Shown piece by piece: positions 9,643 through 64,000 of a stretch of DNA of 64,000 nucleotides (position 1 is the stretch's first letter; the number at the start of each line of letters is the position of its first letter). The stretch is from Patescibacteria group bacterium (lineage in GTDB: Bacteria; Patescibacteriota; Minisyncoccia; Moranbacterales; UBA1568). The notes under the pieces were generated by a model. It had not been told where the DNA came from. It made no database searches and was given only the letters and a program-made list of their open reading frames with translations. Location: contig JBBTWT010000007.1 of NCBI GenBank assembly GCA_038078615.1, positions 1,060 to 65,059 of the forward strand, in the 5' to 3' direction. The translations under genes and the position numbers were made by a program.

Positions 9643-11697
9643 ATGCCGGTATTCCGTCTCCAATCACCCTATCAGCCGGCTGGCGATCAGCCTCAGGCGA
9701 TCGTGTCTCTGGTGCGCGGATTGCGCGAGGGCAAGCGTTCCCAGACATTGCTCGGCGTGACCGGATCCGGCAAGACCTTCACGATGGCCAATGTCATCGC
9801 GCAGATGGATAAGCCGGCGCTCGTCATCGCGCACAACAAGACGCTCGCGGCGCAGCTCGCGCAGGAATATCAGGAATTTTTTCCCGATCACGCCGTGCAT
9901 TATTTCGTCTCGTATTACGACTACTATCAGCCGGAAGCCTATATGCCGACGACGGATACGTATATCGAGAAAGACGCGCAGATCAATGCGGAGATCGATC
10001 GTCTGCGGCACGCCTCCACGCAGTCGCTCCTGACGCGCCGCGACGTGATCATCGTCGCTTCCGTCTCGTGCATCTACGGGTTGGGCAGTCCTGCGGAATA
10101 TGAGAAGGAGAATATGCGTCTCGAGACCGGTATGCCGTGCTCGCGGACGGAGCTCCTCCACCGGCTCGTATCCATCTTCTTCGAGCGTACCAATGCCGAT
10201 CTGTCTCCCGGGCAATTCCGGAGCATCGGCAACCGCATCGAGATCATGCCGATCTCGGAGAAATTCATCTACCTGCTGGAAATTATCGGCGGCCGACTGG
10301 GGAGCATCACGAAGATCGATCCGGTATCGCAGAAGATCCTCGATACTCCGACGACTATCTTTCTTTTTCCGACGAAGCACTTCATCACGGACAAGGATCA
10401 GAAAGATTTCGCGATACAGTCCATCCGTCTCGAGCTCGCAGCACGATTGCAGGAGCTCGAGGCCGAGGGGAAAATTCTCGAGGTGGAGCGGCTCAAGCGG
10501 CGCACGAATTATGACCTGGCGATGATGCAGGAGATCGGCTATTGCAGCGGCATCGAGAACTATTCACGCCATCTGTCCGGCAAGGAGCCTGGCGAGCCGC
10601 CGGAGACGCTGCTCTCATATTTCCCCCGCCGTCGTAAAAGCTCTGGCGGGCAGGCGCACACTGATGTTTGGGAGCCTGATTTTCTAACAATTATAGATGA
10701 GTCGCACGTGACTTTGCCGCAGCTCCGCGGGATGTACGCCGGCGATCAGGCGCGCAAGAAAACGCTCGTCGAGTACGGCTTCCGCCTGCCCTCCGCGCTC
10801 GATAACCGGCCGCTCCGCTCCGAGGAATTCATGGAGCGGGTAGGACAGATGGTGTTCACGTCCGCGACGCCGGCGGACTATGAACGCGAGACAAGCGGGC
10901 AGATCGTGGAACAGGTGATCCGTCCGACCGGTCTCATCGACCCGGAAGTGGCGGTGCTGCCGATTCATGAGACAAAAGAGTATCCTGGACAAATTCAGGA
11001 TTTTATCGCGCAGACTGAAGAAGAGGTGAAAAAAGGCGGGCGCGTGATCGCGACGACCTTGACAAAAAAGATGGCGGAGGACTTGAGTACGTATCTGAAA
11101 GAAAAGAACATCAAGTCCGAATACCTGCACAGCGATATCAAGACCATCGATCGCATCAAGATCCTGACCCGGTTCCGCAAGGGAGAGTTCGATTGTCTGG
11201 TGGGAGTGAATCTGCTCCGTGAGGGACTCGATCTTCCCGAGGTATCGTTCATCGGCATTCTCGATGCGGACAAGGAGGGATTTCTCCGATCGGAGACTTC
11301 TCTCATCCAGATCATCGGCCGGGCAGCGCGCAATGTGTCCGGCCGCGTCGTCTTGTATGCCGAACGCATTACCGGATCAATGGAGTATGCTCTCAGCGAG
11401 ACGAATCGGCGCAGGAAGCTCCAGATGGCGCACAATAAGCTGCACGGCATCACGCCGGCTACGATCAAGAAGACGATCCACGACATCACGGAAGCCTTGG
11501 AAAGCGAGCATGACAAGGCGGTGCGCGCCAACATCGGCCTGGACCGGGAGATATTCGCCAAGAACCCCGAGAAGCTCATCAGGCTGAAGGAAAAAGAGAT
11601 GCGGGAAGCGGTGAAGGCGCTGGACTTTGAAACGGCGGCGATCCTCCGCGACGAACTCGCCATACTGAGGGGAAAAACGGACAAGATGTTGGGATGA
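9643..11697 (+). CDS. uvrB: Excinuclease ABC subunit B
   Basis: GVTGSGKTFTMA, DESHVTLPQ, YGFRLPSALDNRPL, LREGLDLPEVS and the C-terminal UVR motif. Carries a 16-aa insertion at 10627-10674. Confidence 0.95.
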   Translation: MPVFRLQSPYQPAGDQPQAIVSLVRGLREGKRSQTLLGVTGSGKTFTMANVIAQMDKPALVIAHNKTLAAQLAQEYQEFFPDHAVHYFVSYYDYYQPEAYMPTTDTYIEKDAQINAEIDRLRHASTQSLLTRRDVIIVASVSCIYGLGSPAEYEKENMRLETGMPCSRTELLHRLVSIFFERTNADLSPGQFRSIGNRIEIMPISEKFIYLLEIIGGRLGSITKIDPVSQKILDTPTTIFLFPTKHFITDKDQKDFAIQSIRLELAARLQELEAEGKILEVERLKRRTNYDLAMMQEIGYCSGIENYSRHLSGKEPGEPPETLLSYFPRRRKSSGGQAHTDVWEPDFLTIIDESHVTLPQLRGMYAGDQARKKTLVEYGFRLPSALDNRPLRSEEFMERVGQMVFTSATPADYERETSGQIVEQVIRPTGLIDPEVAVLPIHETKEYPGQIQDFIAQTEEEVKKGGRVIATTLTKKMAEDLSTYLKEKNIKSEYLHSDIKTIDRIKILTRFRKGEFDCLVGVNLLREGLDLPEVSFIGILDADKEGFLRSETSLIQIIGRAARNVSGRVVLYAERITGSMEYALSETNRRRKLQMAHNKLHGITPATIKKTIHDITEALESEHDKAVRANIGLDREIFAKNPEKLIRLKEKEMREAVKALDFETAAILRDELAILRGKTDKMLG

Positions 11698-20711: not shown

Positions 20712-22157
20712 ATGGAGAAACTGTGGGAGAAAATATACACGCTTGAAGCGTTTCAGAAGAAAAACGCGTTGCCGGAAGCGCCGGGAGCGTATTTTTTCCT
20801 GGACGCGGGGAAAGAGTTGCTCTATATCGGCAAGGCGACCTCGCTTCGCGATCGGGTGAAGAGCTATTTTTCGCGCGACATCGCCCTCTCTCGCGGTCCG
20901 AAAATAATGCGGATGCTCGAACAGGCGCGTTTCATCGCGTATCGGCAGACGGACTCCGTTCTCGAGGCGCTGATCCTGGAATCCAGACTGATAAAAGAAC
21001 ATCAGCCTCCATACAACACTGATGCCAAAGACGACAAGAGCTACAACCATATCGCCATCACGCAAGAAAAATTTCCGCGCGTGCTCATCGTGCGCGGCCG
21101 CGACCTCGTAAACCGACAACCGACAATTTACCCTGTGAAATCCAGCATAGCTGGTCCGCCGAAGGCGGAATTTCATAGGGCAAGCAACCGACAACAAAAA
21201 ACAAGATACAAATACATATTCGGACCGTTTCCGCACGGTATGCAGCTGCGCGAGGCGCTCAAGATCATCCGCAAGCTGTTCCCCTTCCGGGACAAATGTT
21301 TACCCGCCGAAGTCTTGACGAAGGAGGGCATGCCATCAAAAAAAAGAACAGAGCTGAAGCCGTGTTTCAACAGGCAGATCGGCTTGTGTCCCGGAGTATG
21401 CACCGGCGAGATTTCCGCACGAGAGTACGGACGCATTATCAATCACATCCGCCTGTTCTTCGAAGGGCGCAAGAGCGTGCTTGTCAGAAAGCTGGAACGC
21501 GAGATGAAGACGGCGGCGAAACAGCTGGCATTCGAGCGGGCGAGCGAGATCAAGAAGACATTGTTCGGGCTGCGGCATATCCAGGATATGGCGCTGGTGA
21601 AGGACGACCAGCAGTTAACAGTGAACAGTCAACAAAAAACAATAAGGATCGAAGCTTATGATGTCGCGCATCTGGGGGGAGACGCGAGCGTGGGAGTGAT
21701 GGTCGTTTTGAGCAATGGCCAAGCAGACAAAGAATCTTATAGAAAATTCATTCTGCGCGGCGGACACAACGGCAATGACCTGACTGCGCTCCAAGAGATC
21801 CTGGCGCGCCGTCTGAAACATACCCCGCCCGCAACGTTTCGCAAGCGAAGCGCAGCGATTCGGGCAGGCGAGTGGCCGCTGCCGGATATCATCGTGGTGG
21901 ATGGCGGAGAGCTTCAAGTGAGGATGGCCCAGCAAGCCATCCTCAACTTAGCGGTTTCACCGCTAAGTAAACTGCGTGGTGGAATTTCGGTCGTGGGCGT
22001 GGTGAAGAATGCCAAGCATCAGCCCGAGCGCCTCATCGGACCAGAGACGCTGACGAAGCGTTTCAAAAAAGAAATCCTGCTCGCCAATAGCGAAGCGCAT
22101 CGTTTCGCCATCACCTTCCACCGCAAGCGCCGAGGAAAGGAGTTTCTGAAGATGTAG
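20712..22157 (+). CDS. uvrC: Excinuclease ABC subunit C, short form
   Basis: GIY-YIG (GAYFFLDAGKELLYIGKATSLRDRVKSYF ... LESRLIKEHQPPYN), UVR domain (LEREMKTAAKQLAFERASEIKK) and RNase-H-like nuclease (IEAYDVAHLGG). It ends at FHRKRRGKEFLKM with no (HhH)2 domain. In-frame insertion at 21108-21212. Confidence 0.9.
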   Translation: MEKLWEKIYTLEAFQKKNALPEAPGAYFFLDAGKELLYIGKATSLRDRVKSYFSRDIALSRGPKIMRMLEQARFIAYRQTDSVLEALILESRLIKEHQPPYNTDAKDDKSYNHIAITQEKFPRVLIVRGRDLVNRQPTIYPVKSSIAGPPKAEFHRASNRQQKTRYKYIFGPFPHGMQLREALKIIRKLFPFRDKCLPAEVLTKEGMPSKKRTELKPCFNRQIGLCPGVCTGEISAREYGRIINHIRLFFEGRKSVLVRKLEREMKTAAKQLAFERASEIKKTLFGLRHIQDMALVKDDQQLTVNSQQKTIRIEAYDVAHLGGDASVGVMVVLSNGQADKESYRKFILRGGHNGNDLTALQEILARRLKHTPPATFRKRSAAIRAGEWPLPDIIVVDGGELQVRMAQQAILNLAVSPLSKLRGGISVVGVVKNAKHQPERLIGPETLTKRFKKEILLANSEAHRFAITFHRKRRGKEFLKM

Positions 22158-27401: not shown

Positions 27402-28772
27402 GTGTTCGCTACAAGCTACAGGCTACAAGCTACAGGCTACAGGGGATTCACGCTGATCGAAGCGCTGGTTTTGCTGTTTATTTTCGCCGTGGTGTCCATG
27501 ACTTTCCTCGAGACGTACGCGACCGGAACGCGCCTCATCATAGAGTCGAAAAACCGGCTCGGAGCGACAGCGCTTGCCAATCAGAAGATGGAGATCATCC
27601 GCAGCATCGACTACGATATTATCGGTACGACGACCGGTATCCCGGCAGGAGATATTCTCGAGTATGAAACAATCAGCGTCAACACGGTGAAGTATCGGGT
27701 GCATACGTTCGTTCAGTATGCCGATGATATTTTTGACGGACAGCTGGGGGGCAATCCGACCGATACGATTCCCAACGATTACAAACGCGTCAAAATTTCC
27801 GTTTCGTGGGGTGCTCTGGGAACGGATCAGACGGTTTCTTTGTTTACGAATATCGCTCCCGATGGCGTGGAAACTTCGGCAGGCGGCGGCGTGCTCTCGA
27901 TCAATATCCTGGATTCCGCCGGTATGGGAATGTCGGGCGCCTCGGTGCATATCGTGAATAGCGCTGCCGGTGTCGACGTAACGACGCAAACCGACGCGAC
28001 CGGCAATATCACTTTGCCGGGTACGCCGGCAGGAACGCAGAATTATGCATTGACCGTTTCGAAGGGCGGTCATTACGGAGTTATGACGTATCCGCCGTAT
28101 CCGACGTCTCCGTACAATCCGATCGATGAACACGCGTCGGTAGCGGCAGGGGTTTTGAATCAGAAGTCGATGGTTATGGATCAGTATGCCGATATCACGG
28201 TGCGGTCGAAAGACCCGTTCGGAACGGATGTACCGAACATCGCTTTCAATATGACGGGTGGGAAAATTCTTGGCACGGATCCGGTAACACTGGCGTCGAT
28301 CTATGAATACAATCAGAATCTGAGCACGAGTGCTTCCGGCGTCAAGGACATCGCGGATCAGAGTTACGGCCAGTATACGCTTGCGGAATCCGATGCGCGT
28401 TATCAGTTGCACAAGCTGAGTCCGGAAGGCGCGACGAAAGATATATTCGACGCTCTGGCGGGGCAGGCGACAGCGGTGGATATGGTACTCCTGGATACTC
28501 AGATCGGTTCGGTGAAGGTTGTGGTCATCAATGATGCCGATGGCAGTCCTATCGCGGGGGCGACTGTGCGCCTTACGAACACATCGCTCGGGTACGACGC
28601 GACCCAGTTGTCCGATCAGTACGGGTTCGCGTATTTTCCGACCGCGCTTCCGGGACTCGTGGCCGGAACGTATAATCTCGCGGTGAGCGCGACTGGTTTT
28701 CAAAGTGATACTGATACGGCGAATGTGAACAATGCTCTGATCACGGAAACCATTGATTTGATTCCAAACTGA
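27402..28772 (+). CDS. Large prepilin-type protein with CarboxypepD_reg-like beta-sandwich repeats
   Basis: Class III signal ...GYRG/FTLIEALVLLFIFAVV (G-F-T-L-I-E). Two segments resemble G.V.V....G.P..GA.V.L......TD..G...F. GTG start directly after the pilC stop. Confidence 0.75.
   Translation: MFATSYRLQATGYRGFTLIEALVLLFIFAVVSMTFLETYATGTRLIIESKNRLGATALANQKMEIIRSIDYDIIGTTTGIPAGDILEYETISVNTVKYRVHTFVQYADDIFDGQLGGNPTDTIPNDYKRVKISVSWGALGTDQTVSLFTNIAPDGVETSAGGGVLSINILDSAGMGMSGASVHIVNSAAGVDVTTQTDATGNITLPGTPAGTQNYALTVSKGGHYGVMTYPPYPTSPYNPIDEHASVAAGVLNQKSMVMDQYADITVRSKDPFGTDVPNIAFNMTGGKILGTDPVTLASIYEYNQNLSTSASGVKDIADQSYGQYTLAESDARYQLHKLSPEGATKDIFDALAGQATAVDMVLLDTQIGSVKVVVINDADGSPIAGATVRLTNTSLGYDATQLSDQYGFAYFPTALPGLVAGTYNLAVSATGFQSDTDTANVNNALITETIDLIPN
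27408..27442 (+). repeat. Heptanucleotide tandem repeat (GCTACAR)x5 inside the prepilin leader coding region
   Basis: GCTACAA GCTACAG GCTACAA GCTACAG GCTACAG, read directly. Confidence 0.95.
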
Positions 28773-40637: not shown

Positions 40638-40780
40638 GAATTTTCAATTTTTAGTTTTCAATTTTCAAACAATGATACGATGATCCAATTTTCGAAAGCT
40701 TTCCGGTTCCGCAAGGCACATTTGAAAATTAGGTCATTGGAAATTCATTAGAAATTGAAAATTGAAAATTGGAAATTGAC
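40638..40780. repeat. Inverted arrays of heptanucleotide repeats, (TTTTCAA)n and (GAAAATT)n, between mraZ and rsmH
   Basis: Left arm 40641-40668: TTTTCAA TTTTTAG TTTTCAA TTTTCAA. Right arm 40750-40780: GAAATT GAAAATT GAAAATT GGAAATT GAC. The arms are mutually complementary. Confidence 0.9.
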
Positions 40781-59814: not shown

Positions 59815-61470
59815 ATGGTCAGACGATGGGTAGACAATTTCACTTTTTGGAGCCATGCTCCCAGCAAGACGATCGGGGGAGCCGCTTTGCTTATAGCGAT
59901 AGCCGGCATAGTGAGCCGCGTGCTCGGATTCCTGCGTGACCGCATTTTGGCGTCGCAATTCGGCGCCGGCGATGTTCTGGACGCTTACTATGCCGCTTTC
60001 CGTATCCCGGACTTGATGTACAGTCTCCTGGTTCTGGGCGCGCTCTCCGCGGCGTTCATTCCTGTATTTACCGGACTCCTGAGTGAGAAAAAAGAAGACG
60101 AGGCGTGGAAACTGACTTCGGGGATGTTGCATCTGCTTCTGTTTTCGATCGGGGGGCTGTCGCTGTTCGGCATCGTTTTCGCGCCATGGCTGACGGGGTT
60201 CATCGCGCCAGGATTCGCTCCGGAGAAGAAAGAGCTTGTTATTCTGTTGACGCGCGTCATGCTGCTTTCTCCGATCTTTCTTGCGATGAGCGCGGTGTTC
60301 GGGGGAGTGCTCATCTCTTTCAAGCGATTTGCCGCGTATTCCTTCGCGCCGGTTTTCTATAATATCGGCATTATCTGCGGGATACTTTTTATCGTCCCGT
60401 TTCTGGGGCCGGTCGGTTTGGCGTGGGGAGTCGTGCTCGGGTCGTTTTTCCATATGCTGGTGCAGTACCCGGCGCTCCGGCGTTCGGGATTCCATTATCA
60501 GCTGTATTTCCTCCATGCGTGGAGGGACAAAGCCGTGCGTCGTGTCACGAAGCTGATGATCCCGCGTTCGCTCGGCATGGCGGTCAATCAGGTGAGCCTG
60601 CTCGTGATGACGATCTTCGCCTCGACGCTCGCTTCCGGCAGTCTGGCAGTCTTCACGCTCGCGAACAACATCCAGAGCGTACCTCTCGGACTGTTCGGCA
60701 TCGCATTCTCGCTCGCCGTGTTTCCATCGCTCTCCCTGTTCATCGCGGAGAAGAAAGAAGCAGCGTTTTTTACGACTTTGTCGCGGACGGCGCGGCGCAT
60801 CCTCTTTTTTGTCCTGCCGCTCAGCATCTTCATGATCATCTTCCGTGCTCAGTTCGTGCGCGTCATTCTCGGCGCCGGACAGTTCGACTGGGAGGACACC
60901 ATCCTCACGTTTGAGGTGTTGAAATTCCTCTCCATCAGCCTGTTCGCGCAGAGCCTGATACCGCTGTTCGCGCGCGCGTTTTTCGCCCTGCAGGACACCA
61001 GGACGCCGCTCTACATCGCGCTCGCGAGCGAAGCGCTCCATATCGCGCTCATTCCGATCCTCTTGCCGCAGTATGCCGTGGAGGGTTTGGCCATCGCTTT
61101 TTCGGCGAGCAGCATCCTGAACTGCGCGCTGCTTTATTTCGCCTTGCGTAGGAAAATAGCCGCATGGAACGACCGTGTATTCCTGTCGCCGATGCTGAAG
61201 ATCCTGATTGCGGCACTGATCGCCGGCGCCATCGCGCAGGCTTCCAAATCAGTCTTCGCGCTCACGACCAATGAGCTCGATACGTTCGTCGAGGTGTTCT
61301 TGCAGCTCATCACGGGACTCGCGATCGGCGGAGTATCGTTCGTCGCGGTGTGCCACTGGTTCCGGATAGATGAACTGCGGATGGTCAGGCGCTTCATCGT
61401 CTGCAAAGTTCTGCGCCAGCCGGAAACCGCCGCTCTTGCCGAAGACCACCCGGAACGCGGCGACTGGTAA
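59815..61470 (+). CDS. murJ: Lipid II flippase MurJ (MviN)
   Basis: RVLGFLRDRILASQFGAG...DAYYAAFRIPDL N-terminal signature and about 14 TM segments. Confidence 0.9.
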   Translation: MVRRWVDNFTFWSHAPSKTIGGAALLIAIAGIVSRVLGFLRDRILASQFGAGDVLDAYYAAFRIPDLMYSLLVLGALSAAFIPVFTGLLSEKKEDEAWKLTSGMLHLLLFSIGGLSLFGIVFAPWLTGFIAPGFAPEKKELVILLTRVMLLSPIFLAMSAVFGGVLISFKRFAAYSFAPVFYNIGIICGILFIVPFLGPVGLAWGVVLGSFFHMLVQYPALRRSGFHYQLYFLHAWRDKAVRRVTKLMIPRSLGMAVNQVSLLVMTIFASTLASGSLAVFTLANNIQSVPLGLFGIAFSLAVFPSLSLFIAEKKEAAFFTTLSRTARRILFFVLPLSIFMIIFRAQFVRVILGAGQFDWEDTILTFEVLKFLSISLFAQSLIPLFARAFFALQDTRTPLYIALASEALHIALIPILLPQYAVEGLAIAFSASSILNCALLYFALRRKIAAWNDRVFLSPMLKILIAALIAGAIAQASKSVFALTTNELDTFVEVFLQLITGLAIGGVSFVAVCHWFRIDELRMVRRFIVCKVLRQPETAALAEDHPERGDW

Positions 61471-61478
61471 TATTTCAG

Positions 61479-61516
61479 AGTCTTACTTTTTATGCAATTG
61501 CATAAAAAGTAAGACT
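61479..61516. repeat. Perfect AT-rich palindrome, copy 2 of 2
   Basis: agt-CTTACTTTTTATGCAATTGCATAAAAAGTAAG-act. The flanks differ from copy 1 but are still self-complementary. Confidence 0.95.
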
Positions 61517-61536
61517 TCTCTCGGAGGCTGATTTTT

Positions 61537-63390
61537 ATGAGACAACAGAACATCCGCAATTTCTGCATCATAGCCCATATCGATCACGGGAAGTCCACGC
61601 TGGCCGACCGCCTGCTTGAGCTGACGAAAACCGTGGAGATGCGCAAGATGAAGGAACAGCTTCTGGATCAGATGGATCTCGAGCGCGAGCGCGGCATCAC
61701 GATCAAGCTGCAGCCGGTGCAGATGCATTACAAAGTCAAAAGTCAAAAGTCAAAAGTCAAAAGTGACAAGAGCGGGGGCGAAGAGGAAGAAGTTGAATAT
61801 ACTTTGAATCTGATCGATACGCCGGGACACGTGGACTTCCATTACGAGGTGTCCAGGTCGCTGGCGGCCGTCGAAGGCGCGGTGCTGCTCGTCGACGCGA
61901 CCAAGGGCGTGCAGGCGCAGACGCTCGCCAACCTGTACCTGGCGATCGGCCAGGGGCTGACGATCATTCCGGTCGTGAACAAGATAGACTTGCCCAACGC
62001 GGAGACGGAAAAGGTGAAAAAAGAGATCGTGCATATTCTGGGCTGCAAGGAGGAAGACATACTGCTCGCGTCCGGGAAAACCGGTATGGGCGTGCAGGCA
62101 TTGCTCGAGCGCGTGATCGAGCGTGTGCCCGCACCGGAGGGAGACGAAGCCAAGCCGCTTCGCGCGCTCATTTTCGACTCCATCTACAATACGTACAAAG
62201 GAGTGGTGGCGTACGTGAAAGTGGTGGACGGAACCGTGAAACGCGATGATGCTCTCCATATGCTCGGGACGGAAAAAGAAGGCGTGACGGTGGAAGTCGG
62301 CCTGTTTAAGCCGGGTCTGGTACCGACGGATATCCTGCGCGCCGGTGACATCGGCTATATTGCGACCGGATTGAAAGCGGTCGGGGATTGCCGCGTCGGC
62401 GATACGGTGACGTGGAAACCGCGGGAACGCGCGCCTATCGTCGTCGAACGATTGCCCGGCTACAAGGAAATCCGACCGGCGGTCTATGCGAGTTTCTATC
62501 CCGTGGACGGCGATGACTATACGCTGATGCGCGACGCGCTCGAAAAGCTGAAACTCAACGATGCGGCATTCACCTTCGAGCCGGAAAGCAATCAGGCGCT
62601 GGGTCGCGGTTTCCGCTGCGGTTTCCTGGGACTCCTGCACCTCGAGATCATCCAGGCGCGGCTCGAGCGCGAGTTCGGTCTCACTCCGACGATCACGACG
62701 CCGTCGGTCGTGTATGAACTCGCACTCCGCGGAGACGACAGGCGCATCCCGCTGTATTCGCCGGCCGCACTGCCGGATCCGGCCAGTATCGAGAAGATAT
62801 ATGAGCCGTATGTCGCCCTCTCGATCGTGGCACCGAGCGGGTATCTGGGAAACGTGATGGCGCTCGCTCAATCCATCCGCGCGGACTACAAGAATACGGA
62901 ATACATCGATGCCGAGCGTGTGTTGCTCACTTTCGAAGCGCCGCTGATGGATGTCATCATCAATTTTCACGATGATCTGAAAAGCGCCTCATCCGGCTAT
63001 GCCTCGATGAACTATGAGCCGATCGGCTACCGCGAGAGCGACGTCGTGAAGCTCGACATCCTGGTCGCCGATGAGCGTATCGATGCGTTCGCGCGCATGA
63101 TACCGAGGCGCGACGCCTATGCCGAGGGCAAACGCGTCGTCGAGAAGCTGAAAGAGGAGATCCCGCGCCAGAACTTCGCCGTGGCCATCCAGGCGGCTAT
63201 CGGCGGCAAGGTCATCGCCCGCGAGACGCTCTCCGCCTACCGCAAGGACGTCACCGGCAAGCTGTACGGGGGGGATTTTTCCCGCAAGAAGAAGCTGCTC
63301 GAGAAACAAAAGAAAGGCAAAAAAAAGATGCGCGATATCGGCAAAGTCTCCATTCCGAGTCATGCTTTTCTGGCAGTCTTGAGAAAGTAA
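61537..63390 (+). CDS. lepA: Elongation factor 4
   Basis: IRNFCIIAHIDHGKSTLADR, DTPGHVDF, NKIDL and the LepA C-terminal domain. 15-aa insertion encoded by heptamer repeats. Confidence 0.95.
   Translation: MRQQNIRNFCIIAHIDHGKSTLADRLLELTKTVEMRKMKEQLLDQMDLERERGITIKLQPVQMHYKVKSQKSKVKSDKSGGEEEEVEYTLNLIDTPGHVDFHYEVSRSLAAVEGAVLLVDATKGVQAQTLANLYLAIGQGLTIIPVVNKIDLPNAETEKVKKEIVHILGCKEEDILLASGKTGMGVQALLERVIERVPAPEGDEAKPLRALIFDSIYNTYKGVVAYVKVVDGTVKRDDALHMLGTEKEGVTVEVGLFKPGLVPTDILRAGDIGYIATGLKAVGDCRVGDTVTWKPRERAPIVVERLPGYKEIRPAVYASFYPVDGDDYTLMRDALEKLKLNDAAFTFEPESNQALGRGFRCGFLGLLHLEIIQARLEREFGLTPTITTPSVVYELALRGDDRRIPLYSPAALPDPASIEKIYEPYVALSIVAPSGYLGNVMALAQSIRADYKNTEYIDAERVLLTFEAPLMDVIINFHDDLKSASSGYASMNYEPIGYRESDVVKLDILVADERIDAFARMIPRRDAYAEGKRVVEKLKEEIPRQNFAVAIQAAIGGKVIARETLSAYRKDVTGKLYGGDFSRKKKLLEKQKKGKKKMRDIGKVSIPSHAFLAVLRK
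61734..61768 (+). repeat. Heptanucleotide tandem repeat (AGTCAAA)x4 plus one degenerate unit inside lepA
   Basis: AGTCAAA four times (61734-61761), then AGTGACA. Encodes KSQKSKVKSD. Confidence 0.95.
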
Positions 63391-63430
63391 TCAGGAGTTA
63401 TGAGCACTGATGGTGTTCTCTCTGAAAATG

Positions 63431-63439
63431 TGCTACAAT
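63431..63439 (+). promoter_or_regulatory. Extended -10 promoter
   Basis: TGcTACAAT 27 nt upstream of ATG 63466. Confidence 0.45.
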
Positions 63440-63465
63440 TCACATAGTATTCTGGTAAGAATATC

Positions 63466-64000
63466 ATGCCATTGTATGTAAGAAATAAAAATCGAAAAAC
63501 AGTCTTCACATCCCTCATAACTGCTCTTGCAGTAGGGATGCTCATATCAGGGTGGTTCAGCATACGACCCGTGTTTGCGCAGTCCACGGACACTTCCATC
63601 AATCAGATCAGCCTCTCCGCGTCGCTCTTTGGCAGTGACAACCGCATCATCCCCAATGGCACCTACGCAGTCCGTTTCGCTCTCTACGCCACTGACCAAT
63701 CTACGGCCGATCCGTATCCATCCAATAGTGATGCGGGAACTCGTCTCTGGGAAGAGACACAGACCGTCACGGTGCAAAACGGCATCTTCCGCGCCTTCCT
63801 CGGTTCCGTTACCCCGCTGCCCGCTAGCCTCACCTTCGCAGACGGCGACTATTTCATCGGCATACGCATCGGCACCGATTCCGAGATGATACCCAGGAAG
63901 CAACTCGGTTCCGTCCCCAGCGCCATCAACTCCCAGTTCCTCCAAGGAAAAACTATCGGAACAAAATCAGGAAATATCCCTTTCCTCGGCAAGAGCGGCA
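63466..64000 (+). CDS. Secreted surface protein, N-terminal part (3' end outside the window)
   Basis: Open frame to the window edge, so absent from the ORF track. Sequence: MPLYVRNKNRKTVFTSLITALAVGMLISGWFSIRPVFAQS signal peptide, then ...LWEETQTVTVQNGIFRAFLG...YFIGIRIG...IPRKQLGSVPSA. Confidence 0.6.
   Translation, partial: MPLYVRNKNRKTVFTSLITALAVGMLISGWFSIRPVFAQSTDTSINQISLSASLFGSDNRIIPNGTYAVRFALYATDQSTADPYPSNSDAGTRLWEETQTVTVQNGIFRAFLGSVTPLPASLTFADGDYFIGIRIGTDSEMIPRKQLGSVPSAINSQFLQGKTIGTKSGNIPFLGKSG

Follow-up and report, generated by a model that had tools for sequence, protein, structure and literature searches.

The window analysed here is a stretch of 64,000 nucleotides from a Patescibacteria group bacterium (GCA_038078615.1, contig JBBTWT010000007.1), and the element under study is a tandem array of a seven-nucleotide unit lying in frame within lepA, the gene for elongation factor 4 (EF4). 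The lepA gene is intact and occupies positions 61537..63390 on the + strand, as judged from the list of open reading frames (ORFs), from Pfam and from protein matches, and it encodes a protein of 617 amino acids. The product matched the Pfam families GTP_EFTU (1.5e-54), LepA_C (2.1e-43), EFG_C and GTP_EFTU_D2, all above the curated cutoffs, and the G domain, domain II, the EFG_C domain and the LepA-specific C-terminal domain that together identify an EF4 were all present. The solved EF4 structures 2YWE, 5IMQ and 3CB4 matched the protein with E-values of 1e-57 to 1e-65 over the G domain. The database record of an identical protein carries the title 'translation elongation factor 4 [Patescibacteria group bacterium]', and the nearest relatives are named Candidatus Moranbacteria.

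The heptanucleotide array

The array was identified with Tandem Repeats Finder (TRF) as a perfect (AAAGTCA)x4.7 repeat at 61732..61764 on the + strand (period 7, 100% matches, score 66), which is read in the protein as K66 VKSQKSKVKS. Direct reading of the sequence extended it by two degenerate units at 61760..61773 (+ strand), the fifth being AAAGTGA (61760-61766, 1 mismatch) and the sixth CAAGAGC (61767-61773, 3/7 bases kept). The initial annotation had placed four copies of AGTCAAA from 61734, followed by a degenerate AGTGACA up to 61768, in frame within lepA; this is the same array with its register rotated by two bases, and it does lie in frame inside the 617-residue ORF. It is the longest perfect tandem repeat with a unit of 2-12 nucleotides in the 64-kb window. 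A search with a three-unit pattern, allowing up to 3 mismatches, returned the lepA array as the sole match in the window and no match in any of 100 dinucleotide shuffles, and by our own arithmetic the chance expectation of its 26 consecutive lag-7 matches is ~4e-11 per 64 kb. With 4.7 perfect copies, the array contains the three or more head-to-tail 7-nt copies that define a heptanucleotide long simple sequence repeat (SSR), and it belongs to that known class.

Tandem copies of a 7-nt unit are read in each of the three frames within 21 nt, so a coding array requires a unit that is stop-free in every frame of the strand. AAAGTCA is stop-free in all three frames and encodes the hydrophilic heptapeptide KVKSQKS; its complement TGACTTT is not stop-free.

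At the RNA level, the predicted folding of 61700-61830 was not better than that of shuffled sequences (z = 0.20), an Rfam search of 61000-64000 gave no credible match, and nothing was detected when 61300-61900 was scanned for promoters and terminators. Programmed slippage, whether ribosomal or transcriptional, was rejected because the A runs in the array are only 4 long, which is too short for known transcriptional slippage or for a slippery site of the A-AAA-AAG type.

Position of the insert in EF4

The array forms the first part of a run of 21 codons, V67-E87 (61735..61797, + strand; VKSQKSKVKSDKSGGEEEEVE), located between YK and YTLNLIDTPGH. The initial annotation had counted 21 residues between YK and the Y.LN.IDTPGH motif, and the count was right; most Moranbacteria LepA proteins have 6 there, forming a short hairpin (Y.YQGTEY). 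The net insertion is of 15-16 residues at the tip of the G-domain beta2-beta3 hairpin. Alignment to the Aquifex (2YWE) and Thermus (5IMQ) structures placed 15 gap columns exactly between '..YKAKD' and 'G..Y.L.LIDTPGH', that is, in the turn between the strand that follows switch I (GITIK) and the strand that enters G3 (DTPGH), and both of these flanking motifs were unaltered. An AlphaFold2 model built with 44 close relatives had strands at residues 61-68 and 85-94, with residues 71-82 having a predicted local distance difference test (pLDDT) score below 50; this model was poor overall (mean pLDDT of the whole protein 53.6) and was used solely for the strand positions near the insert. By alignment, the insert is read as an extension of a G-domain loop, as had been predicted for a mapping onto the EF4 structure, and the model suggests that it is probably disordered.

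The consequence of a change in repeat number was explored by modelling alleles with units gained or lost. Changes of 1 or 2 units gave ORFs of only 71-94 amino acids, comprising the P-loop and switch I only, while changes of 3 units (21 nt, 7 residues) kept the frame and gave proteins of 610 or 624 amino acids. The earlier statement that gain or loss of one unit would frameshift the gene is borne out by these modelled variants, in which EF4 is truncated.

Sibling assemblies and close relatives

The initial annotation had left two alternatives, namely that the array is frozen or that lepA expression is subject to slipped-strand switching, and had proposed that repeat-number heterogeneity be sought in the reads or in sibling metagenome bins and that lepA be compared in relatives. 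The identical protein was found on two more contigs, one in NCBI assembly GCA_964365145.1 and one in a European Nucleotide Archive (ENA) assembly of Hainich groundwater from well H32. Both contigs were 100% identical in DNA to the window over more than 5 kb, array included, and the three assemblies represent one allele with no heterogeneity in repeat number. None of the six modelled variant proteins (+/-1, 2 or 3 units) was present among the called proteins of a collection of 15 billion sequences, and 0/19 insert-bearing lepA genes carried an out-of-frame allele. These results leave the switching alternative unsupported. Two further searches were uninformative: a flank-anchored scan of metagenome contigs (CAGATGCATTACAAAGTCA N{0,30} AAAGTGACAAGAGCGG) gave 0 matches in a collection that evidently lacks the known array-bearing ENA contig, and a protein search with the 53-residue hairpin segment returned only short LepA fragments with ordinary hairpins and also missed the query's own protein.

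Most Moranbacteria LepA proteins have the short hairpin, and one sub-clade has inserts of varying length at exactly this site. The insert DNA was compared for five relatives in this sub-clade, denoted L003-L007. The L003 insert (AAAGTTA AAAGTAA AAAGTTA AAAGTTG AAAGTGA) corresponds to the five units of the window in decayed form (AAAGTNA x5) and shares with it the unit AAAGTGA, while the L004-L007 inserts are built of ACAG-type units (for example, ACAGACA ACAGATA ACAGCAA ACAGTCA ACAAGGG in L007). The leading autocorrelation lag in these inserts was 7, with shuffle p-values of 0.0002 for the window and L003, 0.004-0.03 for L004, L005 and L007, and 0.09 for L006. An acidic run that follows the array (E..EEVEY) was retained throughout the sub-clade.

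The type of insert was incongruent with the lepA gene tree, and units were more similar within lineages than between them. The closest lepA found, that of L004, has a divergence at 4-fold sites of 0.26, yet its 7-nt-periodic insert is of the ACAG type; L003, with a 4-fold-site divergence of 0.60 (near saturation), nevertheless has the window's type. It follows that the array has turned over in evolution and is not frozen, the alternative of a frozen array being contradicted by the decayed or different 7-nt-periodic inserts that relatives carry at the same site. The four perfect units must be recent relative to a divergence of ~0.3 substitutions per synonymous site, and the array appears from the insert sequences to have been homogenised or replaced since these lineages split. 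No copy-number change by slippage was directly seen between strains of the window's own species; the lepA units are homogenised within lineages.

The lepA hairpin across genomes

The wider occurrence of such inserts was examined in 80 lepA loci, each with flanks of 10 kb, from genomes chosen as species representatives; most of these are Patescibacteria, and a few belong to other phyla. The hairpin was readable in 78 of the 80 genes, and all 78 were in frame; an insert was present in 12 of them and absent from 66. Lag 7 ranked first, with p <= 0.011, in 8 of the 12 inserts, and it was the top lag in 14 of the 19 inserts examined overall, a set that includes the allele under test and one lepA found by scanning for the AAAGTCA unit. 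The units themselves were unrelated, for example (CAAGATA)4 in L019, (TTTCAAA)4 in L022, and (AATTTTC) together with (AAATCCG)4 in L028. Six of the 38 period-7 arrays of these loci fell at the hairpin site of ~100 nt, which makes up ~0.6% of the DNA, where ~0.23 would be expected by our own arithmetic. The hairpin collects period-7 arrays, and as the site has repeatedly accepted them across Patescibacteria it can be regarded as a hot spot that tolerates insertions.

Two minor observations concern the lepA genes of this sample. In L025, exactly 100 N (10165-10264) stand in place of the lepA hairpin region with the frame preserved across them, compared with 10 N for other gaps in assemblies from the same pipeline; this run could be a masked stretch, or a scaffold gap or assembly break at a repeat. 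In addition, in-frame 7-nt arrays are present ~800-860 nt into lepA in L043 (10802-10847, (ACCAATT)x5) and in L025 (10864-10893, AAATTTC-type), inside the stretch corresponding to domain II of the window's protein, and this may be a second, weaker insertion site.

Period 7 as the dominant tandem class

Among periods 4-15 in the window, only period 7 has arrays of about four or more copies at 85% or higher lag identity. In 1.33 Mb of related DNA centred on lepA, 39 such arrays were found at period 7, compared with at most 8 at any other period, and about half of the period-7 arrays there are contained in open frames of at least 450 nt. Period-7 arrays are the dominant tandem class in this lineage, and the over-representation of period 7 that characterises heptanucleotide long SSRs is seen both in 64 kb of this genome and in the related loci.

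The AAAGTCA unit was also searched for elsewhere. Three or more tandem copies were found on at least 120 metagenome contigs with a GC content of 0.27-0.68. Among the matches listed, these contigs carry 54 further perfect 7-nt arrays with ~50 different units, compared with at most 4 arrays for periods 5, 6 and 8-12; likewise among the matches listed, 51 of 129 (AAAGTCA)n arrays fall within open frames of at least 600 nt and encode KVKSQKS-type peptides. Ten hosts of in-frame (AAAGTCA)n were checked with Pfam, namely AlaRS, LeuRS, TopA, LigA, a GatA-type amidase, a 5'-3' exonuclease, RecG, Tgt, AdoHcy hydrolase and MurB, and domain matches flank or span the array in 10/10 of these proteins. Several of these array-bearing genes are essential in model bacteria, and the presence of in-frame (AAAGTCA)n in essential genes (alaS, leuS, ligA and topA) means that the class as a whole cannot consist of switches.

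A separate group of these contigs (L094, L109, L119, L120, L128, L134, L179, L195, L206 and others) shares a conserved element of ~120-130 nt with the ends ACTAGTACCGC.CGCGG ... CGCCG..CTGTACTAGT, in which the (AAAGTCA)n tract has n = 3, 4 or 5 according to the contig; this amounts to copy-number variation by single units at a non-coding site. An Rfam search of ten contigs carrying the element gave no match, and the element could be a small mobile element or an RNA.

An Azambacteria lepA with the same unit

The lepA found through its AAAGTCA unit, and therefore subject to ascertainment bias, is on contig L156 from Hainich well H41, and its relatives bear the name Candidatus Azambacteria. Compared with the window's lepA, it has an identity of 56% in protein and 61% in DNA, and its hairpin contains AAGTCA(AAAGTCA)3AAAG at the same position as the window's array. 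In a window-by-window comparison of the two genes, alignment positions 121-240 had the gene's highest identity, 0.78-0.85. One possibility considered is that the two arrays constitute one horizontally transferred cassette.

The protein cluster of L156 (at least 90% identity; L156, L208, L209, L212 and L213 from Hainich wells H41 and H52) comprises three hairpin alleles, namely a short one (LWNVEGVPH), the AAAGTCA type and an ACTGATA-type insert of 28 residues, the DNA of which is 7-periodic with inverted AACTGAT / TCAGTT segments. The short and AAAGTCA-type alleles co-occur in the same samples. Their backgrounds are mosaic, with blocks of 100% identity alternating with blocks of ~90%, and two linked polymorphisms occur in all four possible combinations, which shows recombination and points to its being frequent between co-resident lineages. 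On these data, the hairpin is polymorphic between co-resident lineages that are ~10% diverged. No out-of-frame allele was seen among the Azambacteria hairpin alleles. The possibility that short LepA members of the cluster are frameshift products was also rejected, as they are internal or C-terminal fragments at contig ends and not N-terminal stubs.

Interpretation and rival explanations

The explanation that we consider probable is that the lepA array is a slippage-born heptanucleotide SSR, kept in frame by selection at an insertion-tolerant hot spot, with no dedicated lepA switch. Replication slippage with a preferred 7-nt step would generate and homogenise the arrays, and stop-free units such as AAAGTCA would survive inside genes as a 7-residue-periodic peptide, here extending the tip of the EF4 beta2-beta3 hairpin by 15-16 residues. 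Gain or loss of 1 or 2 units would cut EF4 short and would presumably be purged by selection or only briefly tolerated; in-frame states alone would reach the assembly consensus, while the array would turn over and decay in evolution. The site would be mainly permissive, and not specifically selected.

Several points weigh against this explanation. Four perfect units indicate recent homogenisation, which is equally the look of a hypermutable tract. The hot spot is 20- to 30-fold enriched, and passive tolerance is perhaps insufficient to account for this, so that selection for a longer or variable hairpin, for example, might be needed. The Azambacterium L156 comes from the same aquifer and has an equal unit at an equal site in near-equal copy number, a likeness not predicted by random local slippage. 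The tests of switching covered consensus-level assemblies from few samples. Finally, model bacteria can do without lepA in the laboratory, and OFF variants might therefore not be lethal.

This last point also favours the idea that lepA is a contingency locus, in which slipped-strand mispairing in the 7-nt tract toggles EF4 synthesis; we nonetheless regard this idea as very doubtful. The tract does resemble SSR contingency loci (PMC2651432) in that a non-triplet unit lies near the 5' end of the ORF, within the N-terminal 12%, and that a change of 1 or 2 units would leave 71-94 residues and abolish the protein; four of its units are perfect, intragenic heptanucleotide tracts have been proposed as mediators of phase variation in Haemophilus influenzae (PMC2651432), and the 100-N run of L025 stands exactly at the site, possibly as an assembly break caused by length heterogeneity. 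However, at 4.7 units it is short compared with the H. influenzae heptanucleotide tracts, which have 8-14 units in intragenic and 13-38 in promoter positions (PMC2651432), and neither length polymorphism nor OFF alleles were found in the three identical assemblies, among the called proteins of the 15-billion-sequence collection or in the 19 alleles. The gene is moreover of an atypical class, being a housekeeping translation factor and not a surface or restriction-modification gene, and the same repeat is in frame in alaS, leuS, ligA and topA, where an OFF state would be lethal. A new regulatory mechanism is unsupported by the present evidence. The reading that the array is an assembly or sequencing artefact, or alternatively marks an element acting at the level of RNA, for instance a regulatory RNA with structure or a site of programmed frameshifting, has a negligible probability, has nothing specific in its favour and is effectively refuted: the three assemblies agree base for base with an intact reading frame, the 33-nt array is expected to be shorter than typical Illumina reads, and neither the folding score, the Rfam search nor the A runs of 4 point to such an element.

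Two explanations that concern the hairpin itself have to be weighed beside these. The extension may have been selected for an effect at the protein level, with slippage as merely its source, either as a Lys/Ser-rich arm and acidic run that would contact the reduced Patescibacterial ribosome or as a hairpin tip under diversifying selection. This is compatible with the favoured explanation of a slippage-born array kept in frame, and we think it unlikely: the strong site-specific enrichment, the recurrence of insert alleles in Moranbacteria, Azambacteria and other Parcubacteria, the coexistence of three hairpin alleles in one Azambacteria cluster and within single samples on recombining backgrounds, and the acidic run kept across the window's sub-clade are all consistent with it, but an insert is absent from most Moranbacteria and from 66/78 representatives, no conserved motif is common to the insert sequences, and the insert is predicted, from a poor model, to be disordered. 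Alternatively, short-patch homologous recombination, with the near-invariant ERERGITIK and LIDTPGH flanks as anchors, may have moved the hairpin segment from one lineage to another. Such exchange would account for the presence of an AAAGTCA-type insert in an Azambacterium as well as in the window and L003, for the conflict between insert type and the lepA tree, and for the likeness of L156, which at 61% DNA identity has a local identity peak in the region of the shared array; the 100%-identity mosaic blocks between ~10% diverged Azambacteria lineages also attest to active recombination around lepA. Against this, high local identity of the flanks is expected because they are conserved for function, the sequence after the array aligns only loosely between the window and L156, and L156 was ascertained by a unit search, convergence on a stop-free hydrophilic heptamer being plausible. 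We consider exchange of the hairpin segment between lineages quite improbable.

A broader proposal, also unlikely in our estimation, is that the hairpin tip could be a hypervariable module in Patescibacteria, in which arrays are reborn, exchanged by short-patch recombination among co-resident lineages and kept polymorphic in populations as length or charge matters. If this were true, the hairpin could play a part in docking to reduced ribosomes or in the evasion of an EF4-targeting agent, transient out-of-frame states would act as a low-level population switch, and in-frame 7-nt arrays would be among the principal means of adding new peptide segments to the essential proteins of minimal genomes.

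On its own, the array is a curiosity, a non-triplet microsatellite in frame within a highly conserved translation GTPase. Patescibacteria nevertheless appear to generate 7-nt arrays preferentially and to tolerate them in essential genes as 7-residue-periodic loops, and this bears on the origin of new coding sequence in very small genomes and on what sets the 7-nt step of replication slippage. There is also a practical consequence for the annotation of metagenome-assembled genomes of the Candidate Phyla Radiation (CPR), as an assembly or sequencing error of one unit at such an array would produce a false pseudogene of a core gene.

Relation to known systems

The G' insertion of EF-G is a lineage-specific insertion in a surface loop of a translational GTPase. 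The lepA insert is like it in adding a segment to the G domain with the G1-G5 motifs undisturbed, and unlike it in being short, of low complexity, probably disordered, hypervariable among close relatives and visibly derived from a microsatellite.

According to the accounts in PMC4679880 and PMC4692102, repeats with heptanucleotide units formed the commonest class of long SSR in most genomes surveyed by Mrazek et al. (2007), and polymerase slippage was proposed to explain this abundance. As characterised there, the bacterial 7-nt long SSRs of Mrazek, Guo and Shah (2007) share with the present arrays the head-to-tail arrangement, the diversity of units, the excess of period 7 and a presumed origin by slippage; the present arrays differ in that about half of them are in frame inside genes and in that the host belongs to the Patescibacteria. 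The heptamers of Calothrix PCC 7601 (PMC4692102) and the TAACTGA repeats (PMC4679880), the latter recorded in Beggiatoaceae, Cyanobacteria and Bacteroidetes, are similar in having 2-6 copies, a scattered distribution and inverted pairs. In both families one orientation is described as translatable into a 7-residue repeat, as here. They are also described as having one or a few favoured units in mostly intergenic positions before start codons, whereas here there are many unrelated units and none is dominant. One Calothrix unit, CAACAGT, would be a rotation of the ACAGTCA present in L004 and L007. In the literature, which was covered incompletely, no paper was found that links Patescibacteria or CPR bacteria with SSRs or heptanucleotide repeats. 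The lepA array as such falls into the known class of heptanucleotide long SSRs, and the possibly new part might be the hot-spot behaviour of the lepA hairpin.

Other arrays and features of the window

The initial annotation had noted the same periodicity at 27408, 40641 and 40750, and TRF showed that these are real arrays, the units of which differ from the lepA unit. The first is a 7-nt array (GCTACAA/GCTACAG) x5.1 at 27402..27443 on the + strand (TRF 27408-27443), which encodes residues 2-13 in the leader of a prepilin-like protein. The leader reads V-FATSYRLQATGYR-G/FTLIE (MFATSYRLQATGYR-G/FTLIE). The protein has a C-terminal CarboxypepD_reg domain and, at residues 14-33, a weak N_methyl motif that scored 19.2 bits where the cutoff is 21.2; its gene directly follows a pilC-like (T2SSF) gene. 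Phase variation is more classically placed there, at the 5' end of a gene for a surface structure, than in lepA.

The other two arrays are intergenic and lie on the + strand between ORFs assigned by Pfam to MraZ and MraW/RsmH. One, (AATTTTC) x4.3 at 40639..40668 by TRF, is just after mraZ, and the other, (GAAAATT/AAATTGA) x4 at 40747..40780 by TRF and lag scan (TRF 40752-40779, x4.0), is just before rsmH. They are inverted with respect to each other and form a predicted stem of ~29 bp (-51.7 kcal/mol, z = -6.8), within which a second hairpin is enclosed. The lepA inserts of L209 and, apparently, L014 also contain heptamer arrays in inverted pairs.

A decayed array, CAGTTAA CAGTGAA CAGTCAA CAAAAAA CAATAAG, is present at 21612..21646 on the + strand (TRF 3.3 copies at 87%), in a linker of uvrC where it encodes QQLTVNSQQK. 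It lies near residue ~300, between the UVR motif (257-285) and the RNase H domain (305-467). The peptide almost equals RQQITANSQQG from the lepA insert of L007, and units of the ACAG/CAGT type are found in both, so that one unit family occurs in two separate genes among related genomes.

A perfect palindrome of 38 bp (61479-61516; 19+19 nt with no spacer, AGTCTTACTTTTTATGCAA/TTGCATAAAAAGTAAGACT) was observed in the interval that separates the stop of murJ from the start of lepA. It is missing from more distant relatives, and the scan for terminators detected no T-run terminator there. The palindrome might serve as an operator or form a hairpin in RNA. In L004, the nearest relative, a 14+14 palindrome stands at the equivalent place, with a compensatory change of ATGCAATTGCAT to ACGCAATTGCGT.

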